A stretch of DNA of 64,000 bases from NCBI GenBank assembly GCA_027317125.1, contig DAHVFG010000002.1, positions 880 to 64,879 of the forward strand, written 5' to 3'. Positions 1 through 53,881 of this stretch are shown one piece after another (the first letter of the stretch is position 1; each line of letters starts with the position of its first letter). The notes below the pieces were generated by a model that saw only the letters and a program-made list of their open reading frames with translations, did no database searches and was not told where the DNA came from. Source of the stretch: Chloroflexota bacterium. Lineage in GTDB: Bacteria > Chloroflexota > Chloroflexia > QHBQ01 > JADMIH01. The position numbers and the translations under genes are program-made.

Positions 1-221
1 GCAGCGGGTTTGTGCTCCTTCCCGCGTTATGTTAGAATGACGCTGCTCGCGCCATCGTTTTAGAAGGCACGTCGCGACCCTCTCTGCTGTGCAGTCGCAG
101 TGATGCAGCGGCGCGGCAATAGCAAAACGGATATTGTGATCCGACCAATCACACCTGGCGCAATCAGAAATCAGAAAAGTGAAGCACAGTATATCACAAC
201 AGGTAAAATTATTGCTTGCTG

Positions 222-416
222 GTAAATGTTCAGATTTAGGGTGGAGCAACCTTCTTGGGGTATCTGTGGAGGCGTACCCTTACGCACCCTCACCCCAAAC
301 CCCCTCTCCCATGAAGGGAGAGGGGGCTTTGTTGCTGGGGAGTATATCTCCCATGAAGGGAGAGGGGCATGGGGTGAGGGGAGGGACGCCCCTGCACCCC
401 AACTCTGAACGCTTAC
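222..416. mobile_element. MITE copy A (two-module form), nonautonomous GTAA..TTAC element
   Basis: Terminal inverted repeats gtaaatgttcaga (222-234) / tctgaacgcttac (404-416). Perfect 8-bp direct repeat GCTTGCTG at 214-221 and 417-424. Two internal palindromic modules ctcccatgaagggag. ORFs across it (179..460, 226..408) are repeat-derived. Confidence 0.85.
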
Positions 417-424
417 GCTTGCTG

Positions 425-456
425 CGCTACATAGTTATCTCGCTACATAGTTGTCT
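425..456 (+). repeat. Tandem 16-bp direct repeat (cgctacatagttatct / cgctacatagttgtct) abutting the GT4 start codon
   Basis: Two adjacent 16-mers with one mismatch at 425-440 and 441-456, followed by atagt and ATG at 462. No obvious SD. Confidence 0.8.
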
Positions 457-461
457 ATAGT

Positions 462-1634
462 ATGGCGAAGAAAGTTCGGGTTTTGCAGATCATAGATAAG
501 GTTGGGAACGCCGGTGCGGAGGTGTTGCAACGGACCTTTGCCGAGGGCCTGGACCGCACACGCTTCGACCTTTATGTTTGCGGTCTGCGCCCCCGGCCCG
601 GTTCTATAACCGTGCCCGCGCTAAAGGCTCTGGGTGTGCCTGTTATCGTTCTCAACCAGCACGCCTCCTACGACTTGCCCTCGCTACTGCGCCTAGTCAG
701 GTATATACGACGTCATAAAATTGATATTATACATACGCACCTGCAAGGTGCCGACATTATGGGGCGTATGGCTGGCTTTGCGACGCGACGGCCTGTGGTC
801 TCCACAATCCACAATGGGCTTATAGACCTCGATGAGGAGCCGCGCCACCGGCAACTCTTAGAGAGGTGGACAGCGCACCTGTGGTGCCGAAAGCTGGTAG
901 TGGTCTCGGAGCTATTGCGCGAAGAGGTGGCCCAGTGGTTCGGCTTCCCTCTGAGTCGTGTGCTAACCATCGCCAATGGTGTGGACACCGACCGCTTCTA
1001 TCGCAGGCCTGACTTTGATCGAGCCGCTGTCAAGCAGGCTCTGGTCGGTGGCGACTTCCCTCTGGTAACTAATCTTGCCCGGCTGACGCCGCAAAAAGGG
1101 CAGGAGTATCTGGTGAAAGCGGCCCGGGTCGTTACTCTATCGCGCCCTGATGTGCGCTTCGCCGTGCTGGGTGAAGGTCCTCTACTTGGTGATTTGCAGG
1201 AGCAGGCCGTTGAACTGGGAGTTGCCGACAACTTCGTTTTCGCCGGCTTTCGTGACAACGTGCCCGACATACTCGCCGCCAGCGATCTATTTGTCCTTTC
1301 ATCGCTCTGGGAGGGGATGCCGGTGGCGCTGCTCGAAGCTATGTCGGCGGGCTGTGCTACAGTGAGCACTGACGTGGGAGGAGTGGCCCAGGTGGTTCGG
1401 GATGGAGTTACAGGGTTGCTGGTGCCGCCAGCAGATGCCGAAACGCTGGCACTGAGCATTCTTCGCTGCATCAACGACCCCGGCCTTAGCAGGCGGCTTG
1501 GTGAGGCGGCACGCGCCGAGGTGGTTCGCAACTACAGCATGCGTGCCTGGGTCAGCAAGTGGGAAGATCTTTATTTGCACGAGCTTGGTATAAGGCTAGC
1601 GTCGCGGGCTGAAGATGCCTGTGGTGGCCGGTAG
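462..1634 (+). CDS. Glycosyltransferase family 4 (GT-B, GT1/GT4-type)
   Basis: 390-aa ORF. C-terminal motif SSLWEGMPVALLEAMSAGCATVSTDVGG...GLLVPP is typical of GT4 (E-x7-E). Confidence 0.85.
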   Translation: MAKKVRVLQIIDKVGNAGAEVLQRTFAEGLDRTRFDLYVCGLRPRPGSITVPALKALGVPVIVLNQHASYDLPSLLRLVRYIRRHKIDIIHTHLQGADIMGRMAGFATRRPVVSTIHNGLIDLDEEPRHRQLLERWTAHLWCRKLVVVSELLREEVAQWFGFPLSRVLTIANGVDTDRFYRRPDFDRAAVKQALVGGDFPLVTNLARLTPQKGQEYLVKAARVVTLSRPDVRFAVLGEGPLLGDLQEQAVELGVADNFVFAGFRDNVPDILAASDLFVLSSLWEGMPVALLEAMSAGCATVSTDVGGVAQVVRDGVTGLLVPPADAETLALSILRCINDPGLSRRLGEAARAEVVRNYSMRAWVSKWEDLYLHELGIRLASRAEDACGGR

Positions 1635-2868
1635 ACGGCTAATTGTGGCTTTTAGCGTTCCTGTCCTGTCTACACTACTACACTATATGCGAATATTCAA
1701 CATCCAGTCTTCAGCCTTCAGCTTTCAGCATTCGGCTTTCCCGCAGTATCATCTGCGTGCGATACACGAGGTGGCCGGTCTGCATGAGCTTGAAGATGCG
1801 TGGACTGACCTGCTGCTAGCCTCCCCCACTTCAACTGTCTTCTCGTCATTCCAGTGGTGTGACGCCTGGTGGCGGCACTTCGGCGGCGGAAAGAGGCTAA
1901 ACGTAGTCACGGTGCGCGACGGCTCCGGCGAGCTTGTAGGTGTCGCGCCGTTGATGGTGAGGCGCTTTGGCCCATTCCGTAAGCTGGAGTTCATCGGCGC
2001 TGGCCTCAGCGACTACAGTGACTTTGTAGTGCACCCACGCTGCGCGCAAGCGGCTATAGGCGTTATATTGACCTTCTTGCAAGGGCGCCACCGGGGTTGG
2101 GACCTGGGCGATCTGAGTGAAGTGCCTGCTCAATCTTCACTCCTCAGCTTCCTGCGGGCGCGCAGGATCAGCGGGTTGAACGTCACCTGCCTGCCTCAGA
2201 CCAACTGCCCGTTTATCGCGCTTCCCACCTCCTGGGAGGCATACGTTAGCGCCTTGCCCCGCAAGCGGCGTTACTATGTGTCATCATTCCCACGCAAATT
2301 CATGCGGGAGCAGGATGGCAGCCTGGAGGTAGTAGCCGAGAAGATGAAGGTCGAGGATGCTATTGCCACCTTCTATAAGCTGCACATGGCGCGTTGGGCG
2401 ACTAAAGACCAGAGCCTGAGCCATGAGCATACGGAGCAGGGCTTCCTTCCCTTTCTGGAGGAGGTATGTATGCGCTTTGCCGTAGCTGAAGAGAATCCCG
2501 CCCACGAGGGAAATCCTTCTCGTGGTTGGCTGCGGCTGGTTAGCCTGCGCGCCGGAAGTCAGGTTGTGGCTTCATCGGTTAATTTCCTGATGAATGGTAG
2601 ATGGAACAGTTATATGAAGGGCTTTGATCCGCAGTGGGCGGCCAGCAGGCCCGGCACTGTGCTTGACGCTCTGCGTATCGAACAGGCGATCAAGGAAGGA
2701 GCACGTCTGCTTGACTTTGGGCGCGGCGACGAAGCCTACAAGTCGGGCTTCGGAGCCACCAACAGCCAAAACAGACGTGTGCTTATGGCTACGGGCGCAC
2801 CTCGCTCGCGAGCAGCTTTCGCGCTGATGATGCTCCGCAACCGTTACCGCCGCTCGGCGCAATCATGA
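1615..2868 (+). CDS. GNAT-fold acetyltransferase, CelD/BcsL-like (cellulose-biosynthesis-associated family)
   Basis: 417-aa ORF overlapping the GT4 stop. LDFGRGDEAYKSGFGA and the overall layout resemble the CelD-like Acetyltransf_6 family. The start is uncertain; the alternative ATG at 1687 is possible. Confidence 0.6.
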   Translation: MPVVAGRRLIVAFSVPVLSTLLHYMRIFNIQSSAFSFQHSAFPQYHLRAIHEVAGLHELEDAWTDLLLASPTSTVFSSFQWCDAWWRHFGGGKRLNVVTVRDGSGELVGVAPLMVRRFGPFRKLEFIGAGLSDYSDFVVHPRCAQAAIGVILTFLQGRHRGWDLGDLSEVPAQSSLLSFLRARRISGLNVTCLPQTNCPFIALPTSWEAYVSALPRKRRYYVSSFPRKFMREQDGSLEVVAEKMKVEDAIATFYKLHMARWATKDQSLSHEHTEQGFLPFLEEVCMRFAVAEENPAHEGNPSRGWLRLVSLRAGSQVVASSVNFLMNGRWNSYMKGFDPQWAASRPGTVLDALRIEQAIKEGARLLDFGRGDEAYKSGFGATNSQNRRVLMATGAPRSRAAFALMMLRNRYRRSAQS

Positions 2869-3000
2869 GTTCTTTACAGCTCTAACTCACCTTATGCACG
2901 ACGGATCACCGAATAGCTACTGCTCCGTAAACCCTTTGGAAGCTTCGTCTCATCTTTGCGCTTTTGCGTTGCCTTTCGTCCTGTAATGGAACGGTTCGTG

Positions 3001-3036
3001 CTTATTCTCCATCAGCATTGGTTGATGGAGAATAAG
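3001..3036 (+). promoter_or_regulatory. Perfect 14-bp hairpin occluding the SD of the M4 protease gene
   Basis: cttattctccatca (3001-3014) and tgatggagaataag (3023-3036) are exact reverse complements with an 8-nt loop. The right arm contains GGAG and ends 1 nt before ATG 3037. Confidence 0.7.
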
Positions 3037-5697
3037 ATGCACAGTTGGATTTCTAGCAGACGCTATCTCACCGCCATGCAGATGGCGCTCTCAATGCTCG
3101 CAGCTGCGGCCCTCGTTAGCTCCTCCGGCAGCCTGGCCGCGCAGCAGGCGCTTTGGGCCTCAAGCGCCCGGCTTGTCAACGCTCTGGATACAAGCGTAAC
3201 TCTGGCTGCCTACACGGACACTCCCGGCCAGGCGCAATCGCCGGCGGTTGCATTCGACGCGCTCAATAGCCGTGCGGGGGGCACTCTCCAGGTCTACTGG
3301 GATCAGCAGACAGCTATTCCGCGTTTCCTCGCTGGCAATAGCAGCTCTGCTAGAATACCCTATGCACCAACCGCAGCCGAGCGGGGCAACCCTCTTGCCG
3401 TCGCGCGCGGCTTCCTCGATGAGAACCGTGCTCTTTTTCGCCTCGATGCTGTCGCAAACGACTTCGGCCCGGCGCGTATGGAGCCGGACGCGCAGCTACG
3501 CTTCTCCAATATTCGCCTGCCGCAAATCTACAACGGCATACCTGTTTACGGAAAAGAGATGGTCGTCAATCTCGATGAGCAGGGGCGGATAGTAGCGGTT
3601 GCCGGTCAATACGCGCCTGGCCTGAAGATTCCAAGCCAGCCGACAATTACCCGCGATCAGGCTGACCAAGTTGCTCTACAGGACCTGAAGGAGAGCTTGC
3701 TTGGCCCTGCGGAAAGCTCTACAGTTCAAGTAAACGTGCTCAGCGACAAGACGGCCCTATCGGTCTACGTGGATGAAAATGGCAAGGCGACGCTATCGTG
3801 GAATGTCAAAGTGCTCACCACCTCCCCTCTGGGTGAGTGGACTATCTTTGTCAACGCCCGCCGCCCTGTAGTTGTGCATGCCATAGATACCATCGACAAT
3901 CTGAAGAACCGCGAGACTTATAGCGCCGGCAATAGCACCGATATCCCAGGTCGGCTGCTGGTGCAGGAGGGAGAGCGCACGTCAGACCCTGTTGGGCAGG
4001 CGGCCCAGGACGATGCCGGTAAAGTCTACGATTATTACTTCAACACTTTCAAGCGCGATGCCATTGACGGGCAGGGTGGCACCCTGGTCTCTACTGTACA
4101 TTATGGCGCTAATTCCGAGGACGCTGAGAACGCCGCCTGGATAAGCGAAGCGCAGCAAATGGTGTACGGAGATGGGGGCACCATCTTCAAACCTCTCGCG
4201 TATGCCCTTGACGTAGCAGGGCACGAGTTTACACACGGCATCACAGATAACACCGCGCAACTCATCTACGAAGGGCAGTCGGGGGCGCTCAACGAGTCGT
4301 ACTCCGACGTCTTCGGCGCGATGATTGACCGCGCCAACTGGACGATTGGCGAAACAATCGTGAAATCGCCCCCTTACCCCGTCCCCTATCTGCGGAGCCT
4401 TCAGGACCCTGAGATCGGCGGTAATTACGACCCCTCGAACCCACTCACAGGCGTGGGCCAACCGGGAACCATGAGCAACTATGCTAACTTGCCTCTCAGC
4501 CGTAAGGCCGACAACGGCGGCGTGCATATCAACAGCGGCATCCCCAACCATGCTGCTTACTTCATCGCGCAGGCCATCGGCAAAGAGAAGATGGAGCAAA
4601 TATACTATCGTGCGCTCACACAGTATCTGACGCCCAATGCTAACTTCACGGACGCAGGGCGCGCCACCGTTCAGGCGGCGACCGACCTGTATGGCACAAC
4701 AGAGGTCAACGCTGTGCAAGCAGCTTTCAGGCAGGTGGGCATAGATGTCACCGGCTCGCAGACCGCCCCGGCGCCACCCGTGCAGCCCGGTAACTCAGGC
4801 GCGCCCACTCCTGGCCCCTCTCTACCTGTTCCCTCTGAGACCCTCCCGGCGGGCTGCCGTGAGCTGATCGCCAATGGCGGCTTTGAGGGCACCAACAGCT
4901 GGAATGAGGTAACCTCCAGCCAGACAGAGTTGATTGACCCACAACTGCCCCACACAGGCACGCAAAGTGCCTGGCTCGGGGGCACCGATAAGGAATCTGT
5001 GCAGTATATTTACCAGGACGTAGCCGTGCCCGCCAACGCTACCTCGGTCAGGCTGAGCTATTATCGCCTTGTTCACCAGGAGTTCTCAGGGCTTAGCGGC
5101 TTCTTCGCGAGCGACGCCACCTTTACCTCCCTCCTTGCTGATGTTAATGGCAACCAGATCGGGACTATTGAGAGCGTGTCGTCAAAGAACGGCGACGACA
5201 AGTGGCGGCAAGTGCAGTTCGAGCTTACTCGCTACGCAGGCCAGAACGTGCGCATCGTCTTCACGGCTGCTAACCCACGCGGCAACGTCAGTAGCTTTTT
5301 TGTTGACGATGTAACAATGCCTGCTTGCACCACAGGCCAGGCCCCCTCCGCCCCACCTACCTCCTCGCAGAACCAGGTCTATATCAACGGATATATCACA
5401 AGCGCCGACACAGGGCGTGGCATAGCGGGCGCCCAGATATTCATCCTCAACTCCGGTGTTACCGCCTCCGCCGCCGCACAGGATGGGCAGGTCACTGACG
5501 ATGAAGTGCTCACCTACGGCACCACCGATAGCAGAGGATACTACCAGACCGGAGACCCCGTGGCGCGAGGCAGCTCTTATAGCGTGATCATCCTAGCCAA
5601 CGGCTACCGGCCCGTGCTCGCTGACGCCGGCATATCCCTCTCCTCCGGCGCAACCAACCCCACAGAGATTGACGCCACAATGCGGGCAGGACGCTAA
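3037..5697 (+). CDS. Secreted M4 (thermolysin-like) zinc metalloprotease with C-terminal jelly-roll-like and carboxypeptidase-regulatory-like domains
   Basis: HEFTHG (HExxH), GALNESYSDVFG and GGVHINSGIPNHAAY motifs. N-terminal signal-like MALSMLAAAALVSSSGSLAAQQ. Pro-rich linker. C-terminal YINGYITSADTGRGIAGAQIFIL. Start at 3037 chosen for GGAG 7 nt upstream; the ORF is open from 2956. Confidence 0.9.
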   Translation: MHSWISSRRYLTAMQMALSMLAAAALVSSSGSLAAQQALWASSARLVNALDTSVTLAAYTDTPGQAQSPAVAFDALNSRAGGTLQVYWDQQTAIPRFLAGNSSSARIPYAPTAAERGNPLAVARGFLDENRALFRLDAVANDFGPARMEPDAQLRFSNIRLPQIYNGIPVYGKEMVVNLDEQGRIVAVAGQYAPGLKIPSQPTITRDQADQVALQDLKESLLGPAESSTVQVNVLSDKTALSVYVDENGKATLSWNVKVLTTSPLGEWTIFVNARRPVVVHAIDTIDNLKNRETYSAGNSTDIPGRLLVQEGERTSDPVGQAAQDDAGKVYDYYFNTFKRDAIDGQGGTLVSTVHYGANSEDAENAAWISEAQQMVYGDGGTIFKPLAYALDVAGHEFTHGITDNTAQLIYEGQSGALNESYSDVFGAMIDRANWTIGETIVKSPPYPVPYLRSLQDPEIGGNYDPSNPLTGVGQPGTMSNYANLPLSRKADNGGVHINSGIPNHAAYFIAQAIGKEKMEQIYYRALTQYLTPNANFTDAGRATVQAATDLYGTTEVNAVQAAFRQVGIDVTGSQTAPAPPVQPGNSGAPTPGPSLPVPSETLPAGCRELIANGGFEGTNSWNEVTSSQTELIDPQLPHTGTQSAWLGGTDKESVQYIYQDVAVPANATSVRLSYYRLVHQEFSGLSGFFASDATFTSLLADVNGNQIGTIESVSSKNGDDKWRQVQFELTRYAGQNVRIVFTAANPRGNVSSFFVDDVTMPACTTGQAPSAPPTSSQNQVYINGYITSADTGRGIAGAQIFILNSGVTASAAAQDGQVTDDEVLTYGTTDSRGYYQTGDPVARGSSYSVIILANGYRPVLADAGISLSSGATNPTEIDATMRAGR

Positions 5698-5703
5698 GAC
5701 GCT

Positions 5704-6666
5704 ATGCAAGACACCGCGGCCCAAAACGAATCCCCACAAGCGCAACACGTCTGTTGCATCTGCGGGCAACCTCTTTCCCCGCCTTACAACGTGATTAACC
5801 AACGTATTTACTGCGACCGCCATTTCGCCGTTGTGAACAGACAGCATCATGGCTTTTGGCGTTCAGCTCTCGCGCAAATAGCAGCAATGGGGCTATTTAG
5901 CGTGGTGGTAAGCCTGCTGGCAAGCTATGTTGGCCCTATTGACGATCCCTGGCGCGTCCCCGTAAGCGTAGCCCTCGTCCTTGTGCCGTCAGCGCTATGG
6001 CTCTACTACTTCTATTTGCAGGACCGTGACCGGCCCGAGCCGAAGACGCGCATCCTCGAAGTTTTCTTGCTTGCGATGCTTTTGACCGAAGCTGTCGGCT
6101 TTCCTCTGTTGCAGTGGTTCCGGCTGGATGACTGGGCATCGACTTTGAGCAGCATGTCGCTGCTGGCCTCTGTTCTGATCGCGGGTTTCCTCTGGCAGGG
6201 GATAACATATACTGCCGTGCGCGCCGTCGTGTATGCTACGACCGAGTTCGATGAGCGTATGGACGGCATTGTATACGGCACGATGGCCGGGCTAGGGGTG
6301 GGCACACTTCTCAACTTGCACTACGTGCTTGACAACGGTGGGGTGGCACTCGGCCCAGGCGTTGTGCAGATCGTTACAACAGCCCTCGCCCAGGCGTCAT
6401 TCGGCGGCGTAACCGGCTACTTTATGGCGCAGGCCAAGTTCGAGCACAGGCCCGTGTGGTGGGTACCCGCAGGGGTGGTTATCGCCGCGATAATGAACGG
6501 CCTCTTCCGGTGGTCGGTTAGCGAGGTGAGTGCGGACGGCCTCGCCGTTGACCCCTGGCGATCTCTTGTCCTCGGATTGGTGGCGTCGCTCGTGGCCTTC
6601 CTTGTGCTTCTTGGTCTCATGCACCAGGCCATGCGTGGCTCGCATACCGCTACGCTGGATCAATGA
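5704..6666 (+). CDS. PrsW-family-like polytopic membrane protein with N-terminal zinc ribbon (divergent)
   Basis: N-terminal CCICG..CDRHF. Multiple TM segments. DERMDGIVYGTMAGLGVG resembles the PrsW xDGxxYGxxxGxGF core. The other catalytic motifs are not clearly conserved. Confidence 0.5.
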   Translation: MQDTAAQNESPQAQHVCCICGQPLSPPYNVINQRIYCDRHFAVVNRQHHGFWRSALAQIAAMGLFSVVVSLLASYVGPIDDPWRVPVSVALVLVPSALWLYYFYLQDRDRPEPKTRILEVFLLAMLLTEAVGFPLLQWFRLDDWASTLSSMSLLASVLIAGFLWQGITYTAVRAVVYATTEFDERMDGIVYGTMAGLGVGTLLNLHYVLDNGGVALGPGVVQIVTTALAQASFGGVTGYFMAQAKFEHRPVWWVPAGVVIAAIMNGLFRWSVSEVSADGLAVDPWRSLVLGLVASLVAFLVLLGLMHQAMRGSHTATLDQ

Positions 6667-6761
6667 TTATGAATTACAAGACGTTCGCTATTATCTTGCC
6701 TGCCAGCTTACCGCTTACTTGTAATTCGCAGCTCGTAATTCCTCCACAAGCGAGATAGCTT

Positions 6762-7367
6762 ATGAGCCGAACGATAGATAATGTGACTGTGTGGCCTCTG
6801 CGCACTTTGCCCAAAGACATAGGAGTAGCTGCGGTTGTCTTGCTTGCCTTCCTGCTCGGCTTGCTTCTTCGCTTCTCGGTAGAAGGAAGCGCCAGGGGCT
6901 ACCAGGCAAGCGATCAGAGCTTCAGCATGTCCTATCCGGCCACCTGGCGCAGCGAGAGCATTACCAGTAGCGTACTGCTCAGGGTGGAGAACCCTCAGAC
7001 CGCATCGGCTTACAAGACCAATGTGACAGTTGAGGCCCGTGAGCTGGACCCTTCCAGCCCGCCAACTCTTCAGTCCCTTGTTGACAGGCGCGTAGTGCAG
7101 CATGGCACCCTCACAGCCTTTGATTTCCTCTCCAGCAGCGAGCGCACAGTTGACGGAGCAAAGGCTGCGGAGATCGACTACGCATTCGTCTCCCAGCCCA
7201 TTGGCACGTTGCGGACCATCTCACTGCCGGTAATCGTACAAAGTCGCGAATATATAGTGGTCACCAAAAACAAGGTATACTACATAGCGCTGGCAGCGCC
7301 GCAAAGCGACTTTGACAACGCCAGTGGGCAATTCGACCGGATGCTTCAGACGGTGAAAATACAATGA
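6762..7367 (+). CDS. Hypothetical membrane-anchored protein
   Basis: 201-aa ORF with one N-terminal TM (IGVAAVVLLAFLLGLLL) and an extracytoplasmic beta-rich domain. Its stop overlaps the next start (ATGA). Confidence 0.55.
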   Translation: MSRTIDNVTVWPLRTLPKDIGVAAVVLLAFLLGLLLRFSVEGSARGYQASDQSFSMSYPATWRSESITSSVLLRVENPQTASAYKTNVTVEARELDPSSPPTLQSLVDRRVVQHGTLTAFDFLSSSERTVDGAKAAEIDYAFVSQPIGTLRTISLPVIVQSREYIVVTKNKVYYIALAAPQSDFDNASGQFDRMLQTVKIQ

Positions 7368-7891
7368 AAAAGAAGCCCAGCAAAGATAAGCAGTTACAAG
7401 GACCACAGCCTCAGCACGTGCTCGGTAAGGTCCCCGGCGGCGACTTCGCCAGAGAGTTGGAGCCGACGCCACAAAGCACCGGTGAGGCGCAACCCAGCCC
7501 GCCACCCGCCGATGACAAGCTAGAGCTACCCGAGAACGCCCTGGTTGCCATGCGCAAGAGTGGAGGTCTTCGCTTCACGTCGGTAGAAGTGATAGTCCAC
7601 GTTGATGGCACGGTTACAGTGGAAGGCAGCGCGACACCTGGTATGACTATAGCCTCTCCTGCTCGGAAGCTGCGCGATGAGGAGCTTGCCGCGCTCTACA
7701 GGGCGCTCGATGAAGCCAACTTACAAGAGCTGCCCGCGCGGTCGGGGGTGCAAAACCCTGACGCTTACGTTTATGAGATCGTGGCACGTACAGCTTCAGG
7801 CACTTATGCCGCCGAACTATCCGATGGCAGCATACCTGCGCCGCTGGTCCCGTTGATCCGGCTGCTCGCGCAGTATACGGCCCGCCAATGA
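7364..7891 (+). CDS. Hypothetical protein, candidate emfourin-like (M4 protease inhibitor family) domain
   Basis: The C-terminal ~110 aa (RKSGGLRF...DEELAALYRALDEANLQELP...NPDAYVYEIV...IPAPLVPLIRLL) matches my recollection of the emfourin pattern. ATGA coupling to the upstream gene. An M4 protease lies 3 genes upstream. Confidence 0.4.
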   Translation: MKKKPSKDKQLQGPQPQHVLGKVPGGDFARELEPTPQSTGEAQPSPPPADDKLELPENALVAMRKSGGLRFTSVEVIVHVDGTVTVEGSATPGMTIASPARKLRDEELAALYRALDEANLQELPARSGVQNPDAYVYEIVARTASGTYAAELSDGSIPAPLVPLIRLLAQYTARQ

Positions 7892-8017
7892 GCAACAAAA
7901 CGTTGTTTCACAATTCAAGACCAATCACCCCTAACCCTCCCTATATGGCGGCATAAAATGGCTTGTCCCACGCCTGGCGCTACGTGGTACCTGGGAGTGG
8001 AAGGCATCTATTTCTAG

Positions 8018-10300: not shown

Positions 10301-10366
10301 TGCTTTGCGCCTTTGCCTTCCCTCGCGACCTCTATTTAGATGTAATCGCCCTGGACTCAGTACTGA

Positions 10367-10501
10367 GTAACTGTTCAGATTTAGGGTGGAGCAATCTTCT
10401 TGGGGTATCTGTACGCCCTCACCCCATGCCCCTCTCCCACAAGGGAGAGGGGCATGGGGTGAGGGGAGGGACGCCCCTGCACCCATACTCTGAACGCTTA
10501 C
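10367..10501. mobile_element. MITE copy B (one-module form)
   Basis: TIRs gtaactgttcaga / tctgaacgcttac. 8-bp repeat AGTACTGA at 10359-10366 and 10502-10509. That flank is itself part of a palindrome, so a TIR extension cannot be excluded here. Core ccctctcccacaagggagaggg. Confidence 0.8.
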
Positions 10502-15164: not shown

Positions 15165-15200
15165 CCCTTGCAGCACCCCTTATCTGAACAGTACAGTTAC
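15165..15200. repeat. Right-end remnant of an older MITE (E-like subfamily)
   Basis: cccttgcagcaccccttatctgaacagtacagttac ends in ..tctgaac..ttac at 15200, directly abutting the AAAGCTAT target of copy C. No recognisable left end. Confidence 0.45.
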
Positions 15201-15208
15201 AAAGCTAT

Positions 15209-15443
15209 GTAAGTGTTCAGACTCAGGGTGGAGGGGCTAGCTTAGCCCCCTCTCCCTTCATGGGAGAGGGGGTTTGGGGGTGAGGGTGCGTAACGGTACG
15301 CCTCCACAGCTACTCCTTGCAGATTGCTACACCCCAACTCCTCTAAAAATGAGAAGGGTAGTAGTATAAAGGGGTGCTAAATCACTCGTATTTTCATTCG
15401 TAATGGTGACCCATAGGGTCATGGCTTACTCTGAACACTTACA
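15209..15443. mobile_element. MITE copy C (one module, ~90-bp extra internal segment)
   Basis: TIRs gtaagtgttcaga (15209-15221) / tctgaacacttac (15431-15443). Perfect 8-bp TSD AAAGCTAT at 15201-15208 and 15444-15451. Confidence 0.85.
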
Positions 15444-33634: not shown

Positions 33635-33798
33635 GTAAGTGTTCAGGTTAGGGGTATAGCAATCTTCAAGGAGTGGCTGTGGAGGCGTACCCTTACATAC
33701 CCTTACGTACCCTCACCCCCAACCCCCTCTACCTTCATGGGAGAGGGGGTTGGGGGTGAGGGGCGGGACACCTCTGCACCCTTACTCTGAACACTTAC
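33635..33798. mobile_element. MITE copy D (one-module form)
   Basis: TIRs gtaagtgttcagg / tctgaacacttac. Perfect 8-bp TSD TTGAGGGC at 33627-33634 and 33799-33806. Confidence 0.85.
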
Positions 33799-33806: not shown

Positions 33807-33907
33807 GTAAGGATTCAGATTTTGGGTTGAGAAGCTGTGCGGGTAAGAGCGGGGCGCTGCTTTGCCCTTGCAGTTACATCGTCTGTACCCTAATCCTGAA
33901 CGTTTAC
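33807..33907. mobile_element. MITE copy E (short variant lacking the CCCTCTCCC module)
   Basis: gtaaggattcagattttgggt ... accctaatcctgaacgtttac. Left flank TTGAGGGC vs right flank TTCAGTGC (6/8 identical). Confidence 0.65.
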
Positions 33908-39485: not shown

Positions 39486-39715
39486 GTAGGTGTTCAGCGT
39501 AGGGGTGGAGGGCTAAGCCCTTGATGGGATTACAGGAGCCAAGCCCTTGTGCACTCCCCATGAGTAAAGCCCCCTCTCCCTTCATGGGAGATATACTCCC
39601 CAGCAATAAAGCCCCCTCTCCCTTCATGGGAGAGGGGCATGGGGTGAGGGCAGATGGCGCAACACCCGCACGGATATCCCAGGAAGATTGCTCCGCCCCA
39701 ACTCTGAACATTTAC
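39486..39715. mobile_element. MITE copy F (two-module form, inverted relative to copy A)
   Basis: TIRs gtaggtgttcagc / tctgaacatttac. Perfect 8-bp TSD TCTATAAA at 39478-39485 and 39716-39723. The internal segment is the reverse complement of copy A's inter-module segment. Confidence 0.85.
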
Positions 39716-44150: not shown

Positions 44151-44187
44151 GGCGATTTGCTCAGGGGTGGCGACTGAGCAAATCGCC
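44151..44187 (+). terminator. 14-bp-stem hairpin immediately after the stop codon
   Basis: ggcgatttgctcag / ctgagcaaatcgcc with a 9-nt loop and a weak U-tract. Confidence 0.5.
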
Positions 44188-44350
44188 CTCCTCGTTATAT
44201 ACGCGGGTCCTGGATGAGAAGCAGTATAAGGTGGGGTGCCGCTCTGGTACCATCTACCTATTCCGCTTTACACATTAGAACGCTACAATGAAACAGCTAA
44301 AGGTGCGGGCTGATCACTCTTCGGAGTGATCGGTCCGCGCTGTCTCTCTC

Positions 44351-44440
44351 CACAGGAAAAAGGCAAACTCGTCGAAAGGCGAGGACGCAAAGCCATTGGA
44401 TCTAAGGCTCATTAGAGCTATGACAGCCAGGTTGCCCGGC
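44351..44440 (+). promoter_or_regulatory. c-di-GMP-I (GEMM-I) riboswitch aptamer
   Basis: CACAGG..AAAGGCAAAC, then CUCGUC-GAAA-GGCGAG hairpin (44368-44383), GACGCAAAGCC (44384-44394), tetraloop-receptor-like UCUAAG..CUAUGA around the GGCUC/GAGCU hairpin, and AGCCAGGUUGCC (44425-44436). This is collinear with the V. cholerae Vc2 aptamer as I recall it. Confidence 0.8.
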
Positions 44441-44520
44441 AATGACATATTTGCCACTGCGCTATTACAACGTTGACAGTGTGGCTTTATCGTCGCCCAA
44501 AATTGCCTGCAACGGCTGTC

Positions 44521-44537
44521 GTTCCTCAAGGAGGAAC
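44521..44537 (+). promoter_or_regulatory. SD-sequestering hairpin at the SLH gene start
   Basis: GUUCCUC-AAG-GAGGAAC. The right arm is the SD (AAGGAGG), 1 nt before UAUG (ATG 44539). Confidence 0.6.
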
Positions 44538-44538
44538 T

Positions 44539-46509: not shown

Positions 46510-46565
46510 GTATACCTCAGAAGGGAATTGTAGAAGTGGAGAGGCACCGAGCAACCAATAAGCGC

Positions 46566-46598
46566 AAGCCCGCCTGTAGTTCAACTACAGGCGGGCTT
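46566..46598. terminator. Bidirectional intrinsic terminator between convergent genes
   Basis: aagcccgcctgtagt / actacaggcgggctt is a perfect 15-bp stem, followed by tttat. Confidence 0.75.
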
Positions 46599-46631
46599 TT
46601 ATGCGGCCCAGAGTACTAAGGTGCGAGAATA

Positions 46632-47249
46632 TTAGGCTGTGGCGCTGACGTTGGTTTCGGCCTCAGCTTCTTTCTCCGCCTGCTCTGTGCTCTTCACGGC
46701 CTCGATGTTCAGGTCAAGCTTGACCTTATCGCCGACCAGCACGCCGCCTGTCTCCAGGGCCACGTTCCAGTTGAGATCAAAGTCCTTGCGGTTGACAGTG
46801 GTTGTGGCGGAGAAGCCTATGGCCTCCGCGCCGTAGGGAGTTACACCGCGCCCCTCGTAGGTGGTGTTGAGGGTAACTTCTTTGGTTATGCCACGTATCG
46901 TGAGGTCACCGACGATGTTGTACTCGTCACCTCCCTTAGGCTCGATGCGTTTGCTCTTGAAGGTGATAGTCGGGTACTGCTCTACCAGAAAGAAGTCGCC
47001 TGAGCGCATGTGCGTGTCACGCTGCTCAGCGCCTGTGGTGATGGTTGCTACCTGGATCGTGGCCTCGACTGAGGAGTTCGCGATCTTCTCCTCGTCGAAT
47101 CGAATAGTGCCTTCTACATCAGGGAACCGGCCCCGCACGTTGGCGATCATCATGTGCTTGGCGACGAACTCCACTGTGCTGTGAGCGGCGTCTATCTTCC
47201 ATGTGCTTGTCTTGATATTTGTCGGGGTTTGTACGATTGTGTTAGCCAT
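46632..47249 (-). CDS. YceI family protein
   Basis: WKIDAAHSTVEFVAKHMMIANVRGRF N-terminal signature. AGGAGG RBS. Confidence 0.85.
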   Translation of the reverse strand: MANTIVQTPTNIKTSTWKIDAAHSTVEFVAKHMMIANVRGRFPDVEGTIRFDEEKIANSSVEATIQVATITTGAEQRDTHMRSGDFFLVEQYPTITFKSKRIEPKGGDEYNIVGDLTIRGITKEVTLNTTYEGRGVTPYGAEAIGFSATTTVNRKDFDLNWNVALETGGVLVGDKVKLDLNIEAVKSTEQAEKEAEAETNVSATA

Positions 47250-47317
47250 TTATCGCCTCCTACTTATTGTTTAACTATCTACTATTTATACGTCAACTAT
47301 GGGGCCAAAAAGAACAT

Positions 47318-47806
47318 CTAGTGCTGTCTGATGGAATTGTCCAGCGTCTGGAGTATCTCGCGTAATGCAGCCAGTTGTTGGGGTGTCAGCCCCGACATGT
47401 GCTCGCGAACGAACTCGCTATAAGCAGGTACAGCTTCCTTCGCCAGTCTTTCGCCCTCTGCCGTCAGATGAAGCAAGTTAGGGCGGCGGTCTTCGGGATC
47501 GCTACGCCTCTCCACAAGACCATGAGCCGACATTCTGTCAATAAGCCCACACACGTTGCCTTTTGTAACAAGCAACTTCTGGGCCAGAGCCTGCTGGGTT
47601 ATACCTTGCTCCTGGCTGAGCAGAGCCAGCACGTCATACTGGGCGAGCGTCAGGTCGTAATTATCGAGGTGGTCCATCAGGTGACGTTGCATCTTATCGT
47701 AGACGCGCACCAGATATAACCACGCAGACATTGACGAACCACACGCCTCACCTAGCTGCTGAGGCGGCGCTTCCGTTGTGATCTCTGTCTCCATAAAATT
47801 GCTCAT
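47318..47806 (-). CDS. MarR family transcriptional regulator
   Basis: Winged HTH (LTLAQYDVLALL...GITQQALAQKLLVTKGNVCGLIDRM...GLVERR.DPEDRR). Confidence 0.9.
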   Translation of the reverse strand: MSNFMETEITTEAPPQQLGEACGSSMSAWLYLVRVYDKMQRHLMDHLDNYDLTLAQYDVLALLSQEQGITQQALAQKLLVTKGNVCGLIDRMSAHGLVERRSDPEDRRPNLLHLTAEGERLAKEAVPAYSEFVREHMSGLTPQQLAALREILQTLDNSIRQH

Positions 47807-47820
47807 TCACTTATAGTATA

Positions 47821-47849
47821 TATATAAACTATTTTGCGCGATTTGTCAA
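47821..47849 (-). promoter_or_regulatory. Sigma-70-type promoter of the marR-yceI operon (very short leader)
   Basis: On the minus strand: TTGACA (47849-47844), 17-bp spacer, TATATA (47826-47821). marR ATG at 47806. The -35 lies 6 bp from the MITE G TSD. Confidence 0.65.
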
Positions 47850-47863
47850 GCCCCCGCTAAGCT

Positions 47864-48062
47864 GTAACTGTTCAGAGTAGGGGTAGAGGCAATCTGCAAG
47901 GAGTAGCTGTGGAGGCGTACCCTCACCTAGCCTCACCCTCCCTCACCCCCAAACCCCCTCTCCCATGAAGGGAGAGGGGGCTTTCTCCCTCACCCCATGC
48001 CCCTCTCCCATGAAGGGAGAGGGGGCTAGGCTGGCCCATCCACCCTTAGTCTGAACGCTTAC
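47864..48062. mobile_element. MITE copy G (two-module form)
   Basis: TIRs gtaactgttcaga / tctgaacgcttac. Perfect 8-bp TSD GCTAAGCT at 47856-47863 and 48063-48070. Confidence 0.85.
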
Positions 48063-48147
48063 GCTAAGCTCAGCTCGCATGTTGGATTTTTGCCGCAGCT
48101 TGTTGCCCGCTTACCTTCGGCCAAACGAAAAGAAGGGCTCGGTTGGC

Positions 48148-49314
48148 CTAGTTGCCGCCGGTTCCGGTGAGAAAGGCCTGCAACGCATCAGCATATGCCA
48201 GCGCAATCGCCTGGCGTACGCTCTCTTTGTTGAGTTGAGCTGCTTGCTCAGGTGAGCTTACGTAAAGCGACTCGGCTAAAACGCCCGGCATGGCAGTAGC
48301 CCTTACGTGCCTCGGTGGGTTCACAGGCCCGAGCAAGAACAAATGTTGAGGAGGAACTGAAGAATCGGTGTTCAGATCGGTGACCAACCCCGCCCCGTCA
48401 GGCGTGTAGCCCGCATCTGCAAGTTTAGAATCAAGCTGGTCGCTCACCAGATGGCCCAACTGCTTGCTCTGCTCAGCAAAGTTGCAGTCAGAGTCGCCAC
48501 AATATACCACCTGCACATCCTGGCGTTCCACCACAGACGGGTCGCCTCCATTCGCGTGGATGCTCAGAAAGACTTCAGCCTTGAAGTTGTTGAGGATATC
48601 CACCCGCTCCTGCAAGTCATCACCCGATGCGCCCACTATGCCGTCGCCATTGGCATCGGCGGGCCAGGGGGCGGTGAAGGTGTCGGCGGCCTCTCGAGTG
48701 AGCACAACTGCAGCCCCGCGAGCGCGCAGCAAATCGCGGGTGCGCAATGCCACGTCAAGGTTGAAGTCGTCCTCGGACAATATGAGCTTGCCTGTGTCAG
48801 GGTCTGTGAGCACTGCGCCGGCATCACCTCGCGGGCCATGCCCCGGATCAAGCCCGATGCGCCGCCCGTAGAGTGGCAGCTGAGCGCTCGCGCTAATTGT
48901 GCCTGCCGGCTTCGGCAGCAGGTTGAGCGGAGTGGCTGTGAGGGGGAGTGGACCTGAGCTTAGAAACGATCCGGCCGCTGTGATCGCGGGCGTGGCGCCG
49001 AGTGAAGTAGAACCGGTGGCCACAGGGGAGATGGTGCGTGAGGCAGATGAGGCGTTCAAGTAAGTCGCCCCGCCGGTTATAAGCAGCCAAAGCACCGGCA
49101 ACACCACCAGCGATAGCGATAGAGCGCCCAGCCATCGAATCCAGCGACTTCTTCTCTCTTTTCTCGTCTGTAGCAGGCTGAGATACAGCTTTTGCGCGGG
49201 CGGCTCGCCTGGCTCTTGCTCTGTGTTGTCTACCATACCCGGTTTTCCCTCTCCGATTCCATAATTTAATTGCGCACCGTAGTCCATGCACCAGCCCAAC
49301 CCACTGGGTACCAT
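48148..49314 (-). CDS. N-acetylmuramoyl-L-alanine amidase (Amidase_3) with N-terminal membrane anchor
   Basis: IGLDPGHGPRGDAGAV and FLSIHANGG motifs, plus a TM at WLGALSLSLVVLPVLWLLI. Start uncertain; TAATG overlap with the upstream gene. Confidence 0.8.
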   Translation of the reverse strand: MVPSGLGWCMDYGAQLNYGIGEGKPGMVDNTEQEPGEPPAQKLYLSLLQTRKERRSRWIRWLGALSLSLVVLPVLWLLITGGATYLNASSASRTISPVATGSTSLGATPAITAAGSFLSSGPLPLTATPLNLLPKPAGTISASAQLPLYGRRIGLDPGHGPRGDAGAVLTDPDTGKLILSEDDFNLDVALRTRDLLRARGAAVVLTREAADTFTAPWPADANGDGIVGASGDDLQERVDILNNFKAEVFLSIHANGGDPSVVERQDVQVVYCGDSDCNFAEQSKQLGHLVSDQLDSKLADAGYTPDGAGLVTDLNTDSSVPPQHLFLLGPVNPPRHVRATAMPGVLAESLYVSSPEQAAQLNKESVRQAIALAYADALQAFLTGTGGN

Positions 49315-50744
49315 TACGGTGTCAGTCTGGATATTCGGTTGCGGCCTTCTTCGACTATCACCAGGCGGCCTGAGCTATCGATGCCTAACCCCTGCGGCAG
49401 TTTGAGGCCCGATGTGAGGAGTTGCATCTTGCCCGTAACCGGGTCTATCCGTACGATGTCGCCGCCCAGGGAGTTGACGTAGATGCTGCCGTCTGTGCCC
49501 ACTATTACATCGTCAGGCTGATATATGCTAGCTAGCCTGGTGCGGCTGCCATTTGCACGCAATCTGTAGACCGCGTTGCCGAACTCGTCCACCACTATGA
49601 TGTTGCCATCCGGCTCAACAGCAGCGCCCACGGGCCGCACAAAGCCGGTTGCTATCGTCTTGAGAGAAGTGCCGTCGCGGCTCATCCGTAGCAGCCGTCC
49701 GTTAGGACTATCAGGCACAAGTATATCGCCTGTGGCCCGATCTATACCGAGGCCATCCACACCATCCTTGCTTGTGTTGTTCACAAGCTGGCGCAGCAGC
49801 TTTATACGCCCGGTCTGGTAGTTGATCTCGAGGATGCGGTTGGTTGCCTGGTCAGCTACGATAATCGCGCCATCATTGCTCACCACCAGACCCTCGGGTC
49901 CTGCCAGGCCACTTGCCAGCACGTGGGGCGACCCCGTCCCGCCGCTGATAACGTTGACCGCTTTATTGCCGAAGTCCCCGAAGATTATATCTCCCGAAGG
50001 CGCGACCACCACGTCGTCGGGGCTGCCGAACCCGCTCGCCACAACCTCTAACGTCCCTCTGGCCACGGGCGCTGGTGTTGGTGTTGGTACCGTAATAGGG
50101 CCGTATCTGGCTCGATAACGGAACGCCCCCAATTGGGAGAGCAGCACATCATAGGGCGCGGCGTTTTCAGGGTGCAACTCGAAGACCGCTCGCTCGAAGT
50201 ATTGCACTCGGTAGCTCTTGCCGTTCAACGCGCTCACCTCGGTGAACTCGTCAGATATCGGATAGCCTTGCTGCGCCACCCCGCCGTTTTGCTGCCAGTA
50301 TTGCAGGAAGCGCCCACCCAGTCTCTTACCCGTTTGGGAGAAGAGCACCGAGCCTGCTGAGGTATTGGGCTGCTGACCGGCTGCCCCATTCGGATACCTT
50401 TCTTTGTAGCGGAAGTCGCCCAGCAGGGATAAGAGCACATCATTGGGTGCGGCATTTTCGGGATGAAGCTCGAAGAGCGCTCGCTCAAAGTACTGTACGG
50501 TGTAATTTTTACCGTCCGTGTCGCTCTTCTCTTGCATCTGCTCGGAGATCGGATAGCCTTGCTGCGCCACCCCGCCGTGTGATTGCCAGTAGTCAAGGAA
50601 TCTGCCTTTGACGGTGTGTCCAGTTTGTGGGAAGGTGCGCGAATTGCTCTGCGCGCTGGCAGGTGCTAAAGGCAGGGCAGTTACTAAAAGTGCAAAGAGG
50701 CTCAACCCTGACAACCATGATAGCCTGGTTCTACTGCTTATCAT
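49314..50744 (-). CDS. Secreted protein: two ~65-aa tandem repeats plus a C-terminal NHL/SMP-30-like beta-propeller
   Basis: Signal peptide LSLFALLVTALPLAPASAQ. Repeats FLxYWQxxGGVAQQGYPIS...YFERAxFELHPENAAPxDVLLSxLG occur twice. Propeller-type repeats follow (G.A..PDG.I.V.D). Start at 50744 with AAAGGAAG RBS. Confidence 0.7.
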   Translation of the reverse strand: MISSRTRLSWLSGLSLFALLVTALPLAPASAQSNSRTFPQTGHTVKGRFLDYWQSHGGVAQQGYPISEQMQEKSDTDGKNYTVQYFERALFELHPENAAPNDVLLSLLGDFRYKERYPNGAAGQQPNTSAGSVLFSQTGKRLGGRFLQYWQQNGGVAQQGYPISDEFTEVSALNGKSYRVQYFERAVFELHPENAAPYDVLLSQLGAFRYRARYGPITVPTPTPAPVARGTLEVVASGFGSPDDVVVAPSGDIIFGDFGNKAVNVISGGTGSPHVLASGLAGPEGLVVSNDGAIIVADQATNRILEINYQTGRIKLLRQLVNNTSKDGVDGLGIDRATGDILVPDSPNGRLLRMSRDGTSLKTIATGFVRPVGAAVEPDGNIIVVDEFGNAVYRLRANGSRTRLASIYQPDDVIVGTDGSIYVNSLGGDIVRIDPVTGKMQLLTSGLKLPQGLGIDSSGRLVIVEEGRNRISRLTP

Positions 50745-51757
50745 CTTATACTTCCTTTCACCCACGATAGCTTGCTTCCGGCTGCACGGCGTGGCACCCC
50801 GGCCACTTAATGGGCCGCAAAGTGTTGTGGCGTCTACCGGCATAGAAGTATCACTCTTTGTGTCGTCATAAGGTGAGTATATAAGTTTGCACGAGTGCAG
50901 TTCAATCAGGGCGTTTCAAGGAGGGTATCGAATTGGGCGTGCTCAGCCTGCGCTGCCCAACAAAACTGAGGCTTGTTAGCGCACGCCAACTGCCTTACAC
51001 AACCAGTTTACAGAGTGAGCCTTAGAATAAGGCTATAGAAAAATTAAGAAATGGTGAGAAGATGATCGGGATGGCCTGGCCTGTGCCGTCTCTGTAATCA
51101 CGATGTCGCCTTTTGTCTGCAACTTGTATATCGTCCTGGAGACCGCTATTCGATATATACGGGAAGCTCTTTTGCTCGTCCTGCGGGTGGATCGCGTACT
51201 TATCTCCCCGGAATCTCCTGGTGCGACAGTCGGCCCAGGGACGTACGACATAAACTGGCGAAGGGAGGAGAAGATTCGGTTTCGCCACAAGCCAGCGTGG
51301 GCTGAACGGTTTAGGTGGGTAGTCGTCCGCGCGAACCAATAGCCACCGACAGGCCCACAACCTTACCTATCTCCCCGCCCCTGGCAGCCAGCATCAGCAC
51401 GCAGGCTGCGGAGAAGTGCCGTAGGCTGTGGCACACCTCTACTCCGCCAGGCCAGCGATCTCTAAGTGTACCTGCCCAGCCTTGTGCGGTGCCGGCGTAG
51501 GGCCCGTTTGTAGTAGCAGACAACTGTTGTGTTAGTAGAGACCATCTCCCGCGCAGACATGCCAGCACAAGTCGTGCCTGCATGCGCATAGCGACTGGCA
51601 CAGAAGTTGCTTGGTGGTAGAGGCATCTAGCAGCGTGAGAGCGGCTCTGTTGGCTGAGGCACATACCTGGTAATATGGCTGCAAACCTTATGTGGAAGCC
51701 GACACCGCCCCGAGTGCGCTGAAGAACAATCATATTTGTACCTTCAGGAGGCATTTA

Positions 51758-52592: not shown

Positions 52593-52764
52593 TTCTGCGT
52601 GAGCTGTTTTTCTCTCTGCTCGGAGAGGGCCTCACTTCTTCCGCCGATCAAACAAGTTGATCTCCCCTACCGCCCCTTTAACCAATCAGCTGGGCACCCC
52701 GCCTTCGCTCCCTGGCCGGAGTGCAGTGATAAAGCTGCGCTTTGTGGCGCGTTGGCGTGCCTGC

Positions 52765-53391
52765 TCAGGGGTCGCTCCTGAGCAGGGTGGTGACCCCCGC
52801 CGCCCGCAGGATTGAGGAGATCACCTCCTGTTGGGCTAGAGCTTCGCTGACAAAATCCATATTATCAGTGTCGATGCTGAGCACGGGCGCGTCGTGGTAC
52901 CGCTCAAAGAAGGCGTCGTACAAGCGCATCAGGTCAGCAATATAGGCACGCTCCATCATCCGTTCGAAGGAACGATCTCGTTGGTAAATGCGGGACATCA
53001 GCACATCCAGAGAAGCAGTTAGATAGACTACCAGGTCAGGGGTGGGCACCTGCCGCGCCAGCGCATCGTATATCTGGTCAAAGAGGTCCAGCTCGGTGCT
53101 ACGCAGGTTCAAGCCCGCGAAGAGGCGTGTCTTGGCGAAGAGATAGTCGCCCACCAGGTCGCCCACAGCGAGAGCAACCTTGACGGTGGATTCCTGGTGG
53201 CGGTAGCGATTGAGCAGGAAAAAGACCTCGGTCTGGAAGGCATAGTGTTCACGGTCAGAGTAGAAGTTGCCCAGAAATGGGTTCTCTTCGAACTGCTCGA
53301 ATAAAGTGCGCACTCCGAAGTGCTTGCCTAGGGTACGTGTCAGCGCCGTTTTACCAACGCCTATAACGCCCTCTATCACAATGTATGTCAT
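52765..53391 (-). CDS. Deoxynucleoside kinase
   Basis: P-loop IVIEGVIGVGKTAL, EENPFL..FY and the DR motif region (YQRDRSFE). Confidence 0.85.
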   Translation of the reverse strand: MTYIVIEGVIGVGKTALTRTLGKHFGVRTLFEQFEENPFLGNFYSDREHYAFQTEVFFLLNRYRHQESTVKVALAVGDLVGDYLFAKTRLFAGLNLRSTELDLFDQIYDALARQVPTPDLVVYLTASLDVLMSRIYQRDRSFERMMERAYIADLMRLYDAFFERYHDAPVLSIDTDNMDFVSEALAQQEVISSILRAAGVTTLLRSDP

Positions 53392-53510
53392 TTACCCACT
53401 CTCCATCCTCATTTTGCTTACCAGGTAGCCCAACCAACTCGTAATAATGTGCCGGTTCGCCACCCTCTTTTTACAACAGAACCACTATAACAGGCGACGC
53501 CGGATGCAAT

Positions 53511-53691
53511 GTAAATGTTCAGATTTAGGGTGGAGGGGCGTCCCTCCCCTCACCCCATGCCCCCTCTCCCTTCATGGGAGAGGGGGCTGTAATCACCCCT
53601 GTAACCCCGTCAGGGGCAGGTGATGGCAGATGGTGCAACACCCGCACAGATACCCTAAGAAGGTTGCTCCACCCTAAATCTGAACGCTTAC
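53511..53691. mobile_element. MITE copy H (one-module form, inverted relative to A/B)
   Basis: TIRs gtaaatgttcaga / tctgaacgcttac. Perfect 8-bp TSD GATGCAAT at 53503-53510 and 53692-53699. Confidence 0.85.
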
Positions 53692-53760
53692 GATGCAATA
53701 CACAGTAGCAATGACCAATGCACAATACAGAGTAGACAATATGCCAGCTTACTGGTTGCG

Positions 53761-53851
53761 ATAAGAGTTCAGATTGGGGGTGAGGGCGGGTGGCGGTACA
53801 CCCGCACAGCTACCTCTTGACCTTGGTTCTACCCTGAACCTGAACTCTTAC
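53761..53851. mobile_element. MITE copy I (short degenerate variant, no clean TSD)
   Basis: ataagagttcaga ... cctgaactcttac. The inverted repeat appears to extend outward (gttgcg / cgcaac), so the boundaries are uncertain. Confidence 0.5.
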
Positions 53852-53881
53852 CGCAACTGCTAAGATAACCACCGACTACTG

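Follow-up and report, generated by a model that had tools for sequence, protein, structure and literature searches.

What are the short repeats that crowd the intergenic regions of this Chloroflexota contig, and which transposase could have spread them? The window, that is the whole 64-kb stretch analysed here (contig DAHVFG010000002.1 of assembly GCA_027317125.1, positions 880 to 64,879), carries nine elements, 91-234 bp in length, and the remnant of one further end, most of them bounded by GTAA..TTAC termini. Judged from their sequences, they are very probably MITEs (miniature transposable elements with inverted repeats) that were derived from an insertion sequence (IS) of the IS66 family, ISBst12 type, and mobilised by the IS-encoded transposase. 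The evidence consists of 8-bp duplications flanking the elements, of orthologous sites in a sister genome which are without an element, and of ISs in related Chloroflexia whose IS66-family transposase genes are bounded by the same termini. The elements are non-coding MITEs and a real feature of this DNA; they are a known kind of element and not a new mechanism.

Inverted-repeat elements in the window

Every coordinate was read directly, and together with the positions of the open reading frames (ORFs) this bore out a preliminary description of nine copies and one remnant, all intergenic: each copy lies between ORFs of at least 100 aa. The elements occupy about 1.57 kb, or 2.4% of the window (G+C content 57%), with a density of one per about 7 kb. 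The pattern GTAANNRTTCAG with at most one mismatch was matched 20 times in the window versus 4.66 expected, and none of 100 shuffles reached 20; 18 of the 20 matches fall on the two ends of each of the nine elements. With all elements as queries, blastn-short gave no additional copy or fragment elsewhere in the window. The elements are listed below with their target-site duplications (TSDs); arms resembling the left and right inverted repeats of an IS are called IRL-like and IRR-like.

MITE A, 222..416, + strand: 195 bp; TSD GCTTGCTG at 214-221 and 417-424
MITE B, 10367..10501, + strand: 135 bp; TSD AGTACTGA at 10359-10366 and 10502-10509
Right-end remnant, 15165..15200, no strand assigned: degenerate (…GCACCCCTTATCTGAACAGTACAGTTAC), with extra bases inside the terminus; the abutting 8 bp are the target duplicated by C
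MITE C, 15209..15442, - strand: 234 bp, composite; TSD AAAGCTAT at 15201-15208 and 15443-15450
MITE D, 33635..33798, + strand: 164 bp; TSD TTGAGGGC at 33627-33634 and 33799-33806
Short variant E, 33807..33907, no strand assigned: 101 bp; good termini, interior unlike the others; hairpin z = -3.3
MITE F, 39486..39715, - strand: 230 bp; left terminus GTAG, IRL-like arm on the right; TSD TCTATAAA at 39478-39485 and 39716-39723
MITE G, 47864..48062, + strand: 199 bp; TSD GCTAAGCT at 47856-47863 and 48063-48070
MITE H, 53511..53691, - strand: 181 bp; IRR-like arm on the left, IRL-like on the right; TSD GATGCAAT at 53503-53510 and 53692-53699
Short variant I, 53761..53851, no strand assigned: 91 bp; left terminus ATAAGAG; no TSD; hairpin z = -4.2

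Seven of the nine copies (A, B, C, D, F, G and H) are flanked by perfect and mutually different 8-bp TSDs directly abutting the termini, in agreement with the earlier reading of these sites; the end of C, formerly placed at 15443, is actually at 15442. An element starts with GTAA(N2)GTTCAG and finishes with the reverse complement, with F (GTAG) and I (ATAA) as exceptions, and many MITE ends begin with GTAAGCGTTCAG…. Inverted termini of 13 bp had been proposed; they are present, but the alignment of all 18 window ends gave a conserved terminal inverted repeat (TIR) of about 25 bp, consensus GTAAGyGTTCAGAnTTrGGGTGsAG, which is also carried by the IS ends described below.

The short variants E and I had been said to share the termini, which is right for E, while the left end of I has ATAA in place of GTAA. 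The flanks of E (TTGAGGGC and TTCAGTGC, the left one being the right TSD of D) agree at 6 of 8 positions and point to an older insertion. The flanks of I (window 53753-53859; TGGTTGCG and CGCAACTG) are complementary in inverted orientation at 6 of 8 positions and extend the inverted repeat outward; no general excess of such flanks was seen among 61 TIR pairs.

The ORFs crossing the elements are short and unsupported, with no transposase coding capacity, and no Rfam family was matched by any element. A scan of the elements for promoters and terminators gave one terminator-like hairpin, in A, which sits 45 bp upstream of a glycosyltransferase ORF (462-1634); because there was no overall enrichment, a regulatory role is not claimed.

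Target-site duplications in the wider family

A genome scan with a 25-bp TIR pattern, covering one genome per species, gave at least 68 loci. Uncultured Chloroflexia/Chloroflexota metagenome-assembled genomes (MAGs) from at least nine assemblies account for 65 of them, and the remaining three appear to be matched by chance. Taken together, the window and the 68 related loci contain 61 TIR pairs with ends 60-450 bp apart. Their flanking octamers were perfect in 25 pairs (all different), had one mismatch in 8 and two mismatches in 8, and when the right octamer was moved by 8 bp as a control, 0 of 61 pairs had two mismatches or fewer. The flanking duplications first noted in the window could in this way be tabulated for TIR copies beyond it. 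DDE-type transposition, which had been preferred to an origin as palindromic repeats, is upheld by these TSDs with their clean control and by the empty sister sites of A, F and G.

The parent was sought among the ORFs next to orphan TIRs in the first 68 loci; these are mostly ordinary genes, with one IS110 transposase, and were rejected. In locus L045 (4784-5893) an IS110-family (DEDD) transposase gene lies about 100 bp inside an orphan MITE right end, where IS110 may have inserted into the MITE.

Empty sites in a sister genome

The sister MAG JADEYI01 (GCA_015470965.1) has 87-88% nucleotide identity to the window over 10 and 11 kb of synteny. One of its contigs (L069, 21 kb) is syntenic with window 1-10300 at about 88% nucleotide identity and bears a protein (P0002) 87% identical to the 760-aa window protein encoded at 8018-10300, which at 90% identity clusters with, among others, MBF6613527.1 of a Chloroflexi MAG. 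A second contig (L076) covers window 39717-50914 at 86-87%. No TIR was found at the orthologous places in these two contigs, and sites A (in L069), F and G (both in L076) are without an element.

At site F the window sequence, minus the element and one octamer, aligns gap-free to the sister contig across the insertion point, where a single octamer GCTCTAAA stands versus TCTATAAA twice in the window, with 6 of 8 positions identical. At site A the lengths of the empty site in window and sister agree exactly. The sister MAG has window-type copies of its own elsewhere, in L079 and L080, whose flanking TSD octamers agree at 7 of 8 positions. Insertions therefore took place in both lineages after their split. 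An all-against-all comparison of the loci for filled and empty pairs gave none usable, with identities of about 70%.

Two other differences between the genomes were observed. MITE B stands at a synteny break (window 10301-10515 versus L069 11376-19981), where sugar ABC-transporter genes, 8.6 kb in all, separate the orthologues of the two flanking genes in the sister; the perfect TSD of B argues against a simple MITE-MITE recombination scar there. An insertion of about 590 bp with a DDE_5 transposase fragment (L069 8402-8991) is absent at window 7893-7901.

The probable IS66-family parent in related Chloroflexia

When all ends were sorted by post-TIR sequence, one arm type was present on three contigs of MAG JBBRDO01, all of which end 167-319 bp into a repeat that is about 99% identical and starts with the TIR. 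Contigs ending in this manner are the signature of a long multicopy element which breaks short-read assemblies. Read towards the end, the longest stretch of it (319 bp) encodes the C-terminus of an IS66-family transposase (…DTNLAERSIRPVVVMRKVSGG…) with the stop codon inside the TIR, and the encoded fragment was matched by Pfam DDE_Tnp_IS66 (E = 3.6e-10) and NCBIfam transpos_IS66 (E = 7.6e-21). Homologous transposase 3' ends run into the same TIR in L070, L071 and L072, and decayed versions were observed in L001 and L029. The TIR is linked to an IS66-family transposase ORF or a decayed fragment of one, which ends within or beside it, in ten independent contexts (L058/L015/L068, L070, L071, L072, L073, L075, L088, L001 and L029).

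A search with the 100-aa C-terminal fragment returned fragments only, and full-length transposases were reached with a protein rebuilt from the frameshifted L071 copy. The rebuilt protein had 3306 relatives, of which the best were 450-486 aa long and mostly on contigs of 1.4-2.2 kb. Three complete ISs were delimited:

Complete IS in L073, 3997-5463: 1467 bp, one ORF; perfect TSD GGGATCTG; left inverted repeat (IRL) GTAAGTGTTCAGACTTGAGGTGGAGCAATTT, right inverted repeat (IRR) GTAAGTGTTCAGACTAATGGTGTAGAGGG
Complete IS in L075, 3952-5373: 1422 bp; no TSD
Complete IS in L088, 608-2063: 1456 bp; no TSD; short-read contig

These ISs of 1422-1467 bp have termini GTAAGTGTTCAG… and a single ORF that starts about 45-50 bp from IRL, encodes a transposase of 452-486 aa and ends within the right TIR. 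The transposases belong to the IS66 family: NF033517 was matched with 269-277 bits (P0165 = 271) versus a cut-off of 180, PF03050 (DDE_Tnp_IS66) with E from 1e-43 to 1e-46, and PF13005 (zf-IS66) was matched as well. Three more copies of at least 90% identity were present on one contig of 1.15 Mb. The parent is of the single-ORF ISBst12-group type and not a canonical three-ORF IS66. The intact IS in L073 has a resolvase gene on one side and the gene of a Tn3-family transposase on the other (L073 3279-8820).

Arms, interiors and palindromic modules

Inside the TIR two arm types recur, one running on as …GGAGCAAYCTTCTTGGGGTATCTGTGGAGGCGTACC and the other as …GCAGGGGCGTCCCTCCCCTCACCCC, which gives the elements an orientation: A, B, D and G lie one way, and C, F and H the opposite way. 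A has …GGTGGAGCAAC… in its left, IRL-like arm and …GGTGCAGGGGCG… in its right, IRR-like arm. The IRL of the L073 IS shares GGTGGAGCAAT with the left-type MITE arm to about position 30, and its IRR resembles the second arm type; IS ends like the MITE arms fit an origin of the MITEs by internal deletion. B seems to have arisen from an A-like copy by internal deletion, its ends being 96-97% identical to those of A. C is made up of an inverted G-like element with a decayed IRL-like terminus, followed by a stretch of about 105 bp, richer in AT, with a good terminus at its end. The right arm of C (window 15336-15442) is a third subterminal type, GTAAGCCATGACCCTAYGGGYCACCATTACGAATGAAAATA, common to L008 5131-5190 and L013 2597-2650; no transposase was attached to it in L008 or L013, and it was not seen on any IS end.

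The interiors are built from G+C-rich palindromes (CCCCCTCTCCC-loop-GGGAGAGGGGG and CCCTCACCCC/GGGGTGAGGG), and the elements could be folded into long hairpins, such as that of A (-106 kcal/mol, z = -6.5) and the near-perfect one of B (-89 kcal/mol, z = -10.7). Across species the arms and interiors change completely and the TIR is kept, as would be expected if the transposase selects on the TIR alone.

In the window the palindromic modules are found only within TIR-bounded units. The CCCCTCTCCC/GGGAGAGGGG palindrome module has a much wider distribution than the MITE. The internal palindrome CCCTCACCCC…CCCCTCTCCC-loop-GGGAGAGGGG (window 287-329, 10414-10456, 47941-48028 and other MITE interiors) has matches of 40-50 nt at 86-91% in plasmids of Vitreoscilla, Azospirillum, Oscillatoria and Pseudanabaena, and the plasmid matches of element A by blastn, which come from unrelated phyla, are confined to it. 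GTAG-tagged stem-loops, for example GTAGGGGCGAACCTTGTGTTCGCCC and GTAGGGGCACGGCGCTGACGTGCCC, were present in copies of other Chloroflexia MAGs (L008 5190-5400, L013 2660-2860, the ends of L003/L027, and others). They resemble the GTAG repetitive extragenic palindromes (REPs) reported for Chloroflexi (PMC3733652), and there seems to be mutual nesting of MITEs and REP-like units.

Origin and mobility of the elements

If the window elements descend from such an IS, a DDE transposase would be supplied in trans by a full-length copy and would recognise the TIR of about 25 bp. The enzyme would cut the target with a stagger of 8 bp and join the element ends to it, and gap repair would produce the 8-bp duplication. 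The interiors would be free to vary, and their G+C-rich palindromic modules would let each element fold into a long hairpin. Mobilisation in trans and the presence of a parent in this genome are what we infer; the family may also be active here at present, by a cut or a copy chemistry.

Several observations weigh against this origin. The window was already described as free of transposase genes, and tblastn with 120 IS66-family transposases found none of that family in it; none was found in about 70 kb of the sister MAG either. The full-length ISs belong to genomes or metagenomes of other Chloroflexia, and their TIRs are similar, not identical, to those of the window copies. Two of the three complete ISs (L075 and L088) are without a TSD, and L088 is possibly chimeric. 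An empty orthologous site with a single octamer, proposed as a check, was obtained at F; A and G are empty but too diverged for a clean single octamer. The window copies have diverged in their interiors and the signatures of E and I are decayed, so part of the family in the window is old. What had been suggested at the outset, an IS66-like parent elsewhere, holds in so far as ISs with the same TIRs were found in related Chloroflexia; none is in the window, and they are of the ISBst12 type rather than canonical. The premise behind that suggestion, that GTAA ends combined with 8-bp duplications are the hallmark of IS66, is stated in PMC11946415 and PMC12898284.

It could therefore be asked whether these are IS66-derived MITEs whose parent was lost from this genome, the copies being immobile relics with hairpins that are perhaps neutral or useful in intergenic DNA. 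The lack of a parent in the window and in the sister-MAG contigs searched would agree with this, as would the decayed ends or TSDs of E, I and the remnant and the interiors that differ between copies. We regard it as unlikely, though it deserves serious attention, because seven of the nine copies retain perfect TSDs and good termini and the ends of A and B have hardly diverged. All three testable sites differ from a genome about 12% diverged, which itself has private copies, a sign of activity after the split, and intact multicopy parents are present in related genomes.

Two further accounts are much less probable than loss of the parent. The elements might be palindromes of the REP type or bacterial interspersed mosaic elements (BIMEs), spread by a REP-associated tyrosine transposase (RAYT, of the HUH class) or by recombination, with the GTAA..TTAC ends incidental. 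Such an account could draw on the G+C-rich palindromic interiors, on the presence of the CCCCTCTCCC/GGGAGAGGGG module in unrelated phyla, and on the GTAG-tagged stem-loops of related MAGs, a type described for REPs including those of Chloroflexi (PMC3733652). REPs make no TSDs, yet 41 of the 61 pairs are flanked by octamers that agree with 0-2 mismatches; conservation is seen in the 25-bp TIR and not in the palindromes, the same TIR bounds an IS66-family transposase gene, and the window modules never occur outside TIR-bounded units. This makes a REP/BIME origin highly improbable. Slightly more remote still is the case that the MITEs belong to another DDE family with 8-bp TSDs (for example ISL3, IS1595, IS256 or IS6) and that their likeness to IS66 is a coincidence. 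An 8-bp TSD is not exclusive to IS66 among IS families and taken alone would not single it out, but the TIR is physically linked to an IS66-family transposase in all ten contexts given above, and the termini match those of the ISBst12-group members ISDge4 and ISKpn15 (PMC12898284). Derivation from an ISBst12-type IS of the IS66 family is the reading we adopt for what follows.

Eight-bp spacers between neighbouring elements

At four junctions exactly 8 bp lie between one element and the next: D and E are parted by TTGAGGGC (33799-33806), the remnant and C by AAAGCTAT (15201-15208), and two pairs in related loci, L008 5410|5419 (5411-5418) and L061 2725|2734 (2726-2733). In both window junctions the perfect TSD of the newer element is the 8 bp abutting the older end; the insertion point of D, for instance, is the 8 bp abutting the left end of E. 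Other close pairs of elements have spacers of 10 and 17 bp. The ISBst12-like transposase might preferentially integrate into the 8 bp abutting the end of a resident element and in this way build head-to-tail arrays with a shared TSD, a trait comparable to the IR-targeting of IS30. We consider this a tentative idea, somewhat doubtful on present evidence, and against it is the fact that in the L008 and L061 pairs the element that lacks the shared TSD is not flanked by one of its own. Were it true, end-targeting would be a feature of the mechanism of IS66/ISBst12 transposases, which have been little studied, and could explain the origin of composite or modular MITEs such as C.

Other features of the window

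The sole Rfam match in the window is a c-di-GMP-I riboswitch (RF01051, 44352-44439, + strand; 84 bits versus a gathering score of 35), which lies just upstream of an ORF at 44473-46509. Periodic repeats of about 70 and 140 bp at 32743-33288 are ordinary WD40 units within a WD40-repeat gene (32317-33540, - strand).

Significance of the family

The family is a clean and well-populated natural example of MITEs from the IS66/ISBst12 lineage, a lineage with a transposition mechanism that has so far been little characterised (PMC12898284). The cis requirements of the transposase can be read from the comparison across species: about 25 terminal bp are conserved, with everything inside replaceable. 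Anyone working on Chloroflexia MAGs will find in this family the reason why intergenic repeats are dense, why spurious small ORFs occur and why contigs break at the parent IS. The elements record a recent polymorphism of insertions between genomes about 12% apart and could be used as strain markers. The current understanding of transposition is left unchanged by them.

Comparison with known systems

With REPs and BIMEs of the RAYT-associated kind the window elements have in common the G+C-rich intergenic palindromes, and some related-MAG copies contain GTAG-tagged stem-loops. REPs are without 25-bp TIRs or TSDs and depend on another enzyme class, and the elements do not belong with them.

Canonical IS66 members are about 2.5 kb long and also carry tnpA and tnpB upstream of tnpC, whereas the parent ISs found here have 1.42-1.47 kb and a single ORF, which differs from the canonical architecture. 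Shared with the canonical elements (IS66, IS679, ISPsk01) are GTAAGCG-type termini, inverted repeats (IRs) of 20-30 bp, 8-bp direct repeats and a TnpC-type DDE transposase (PMC11946415, PMC12888890). IS66 IRs of 20-30 bp are described as starting with GTAAGCG and accompanied by 8-bp direct repeats (PMC11946415), with GTAAGCGTCCGGCGAACTCACCTT and GTAACCGTCCGGGCA as examples (PMC12888890).

Single-ORF members of the IS66 family form the ISBst12 group (PMC12898284), and the closest likeness is to this group, represented by ISDge4 and by ISKpn15 of Aeromonas/Klebsiella plasmids: one-ORF ISs, matches to IS66 hidden Markov models above the cut-off, similar termini and an 8-bp TSD. ISDge4 of Deinococcus geothermalis, with the TIR GTAACTGCTCAGCA and a direct repeat of 8 bp, encodes a transposase of 449 aa (PMC12898284); its TIR is identical at 12 of 14 positions to GTAACTGTTCAGAG, the first 14 bases of the left end of G. 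ISKpn15 on an Aeromonas plasmid, whose sequence was checked, has 1534 bp, one ORF, the IRL GTAAGTATTCACC and GGCTGCAT on both sides. The Chloroflexia transposase is less than 30% identical to any plasmid-borne relative, its hosts are uncultured Chloroflexia, and the window elements are non-coding derivatives of 91-234 bp and not the IS itself.

No published description of IS66- or ISBst12-derived MITEs, or of Chloroflexia MITEs, was found in the limited literature collection searched, which is no proof of absence. Among IS-linked bacterial MITEs (MITEPye1/IS1182 of Paracoccus, the Cardinium MITE/IS982, Nezha and RUP), small size, IS-matching TIRs, TSDs, non-coding and intergenic character and hairpin potential are shared with the window elements (PMC11578231, PMC9769881, PMC3733652). 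The differences lie in the parent family, in the high density in the window (one per about 7 kb), and in the modular interiors which change between species while the TIR is conserved. The MITE family and its Chloroflexia ISBst12-like parent lineage are an additional member of this known class.

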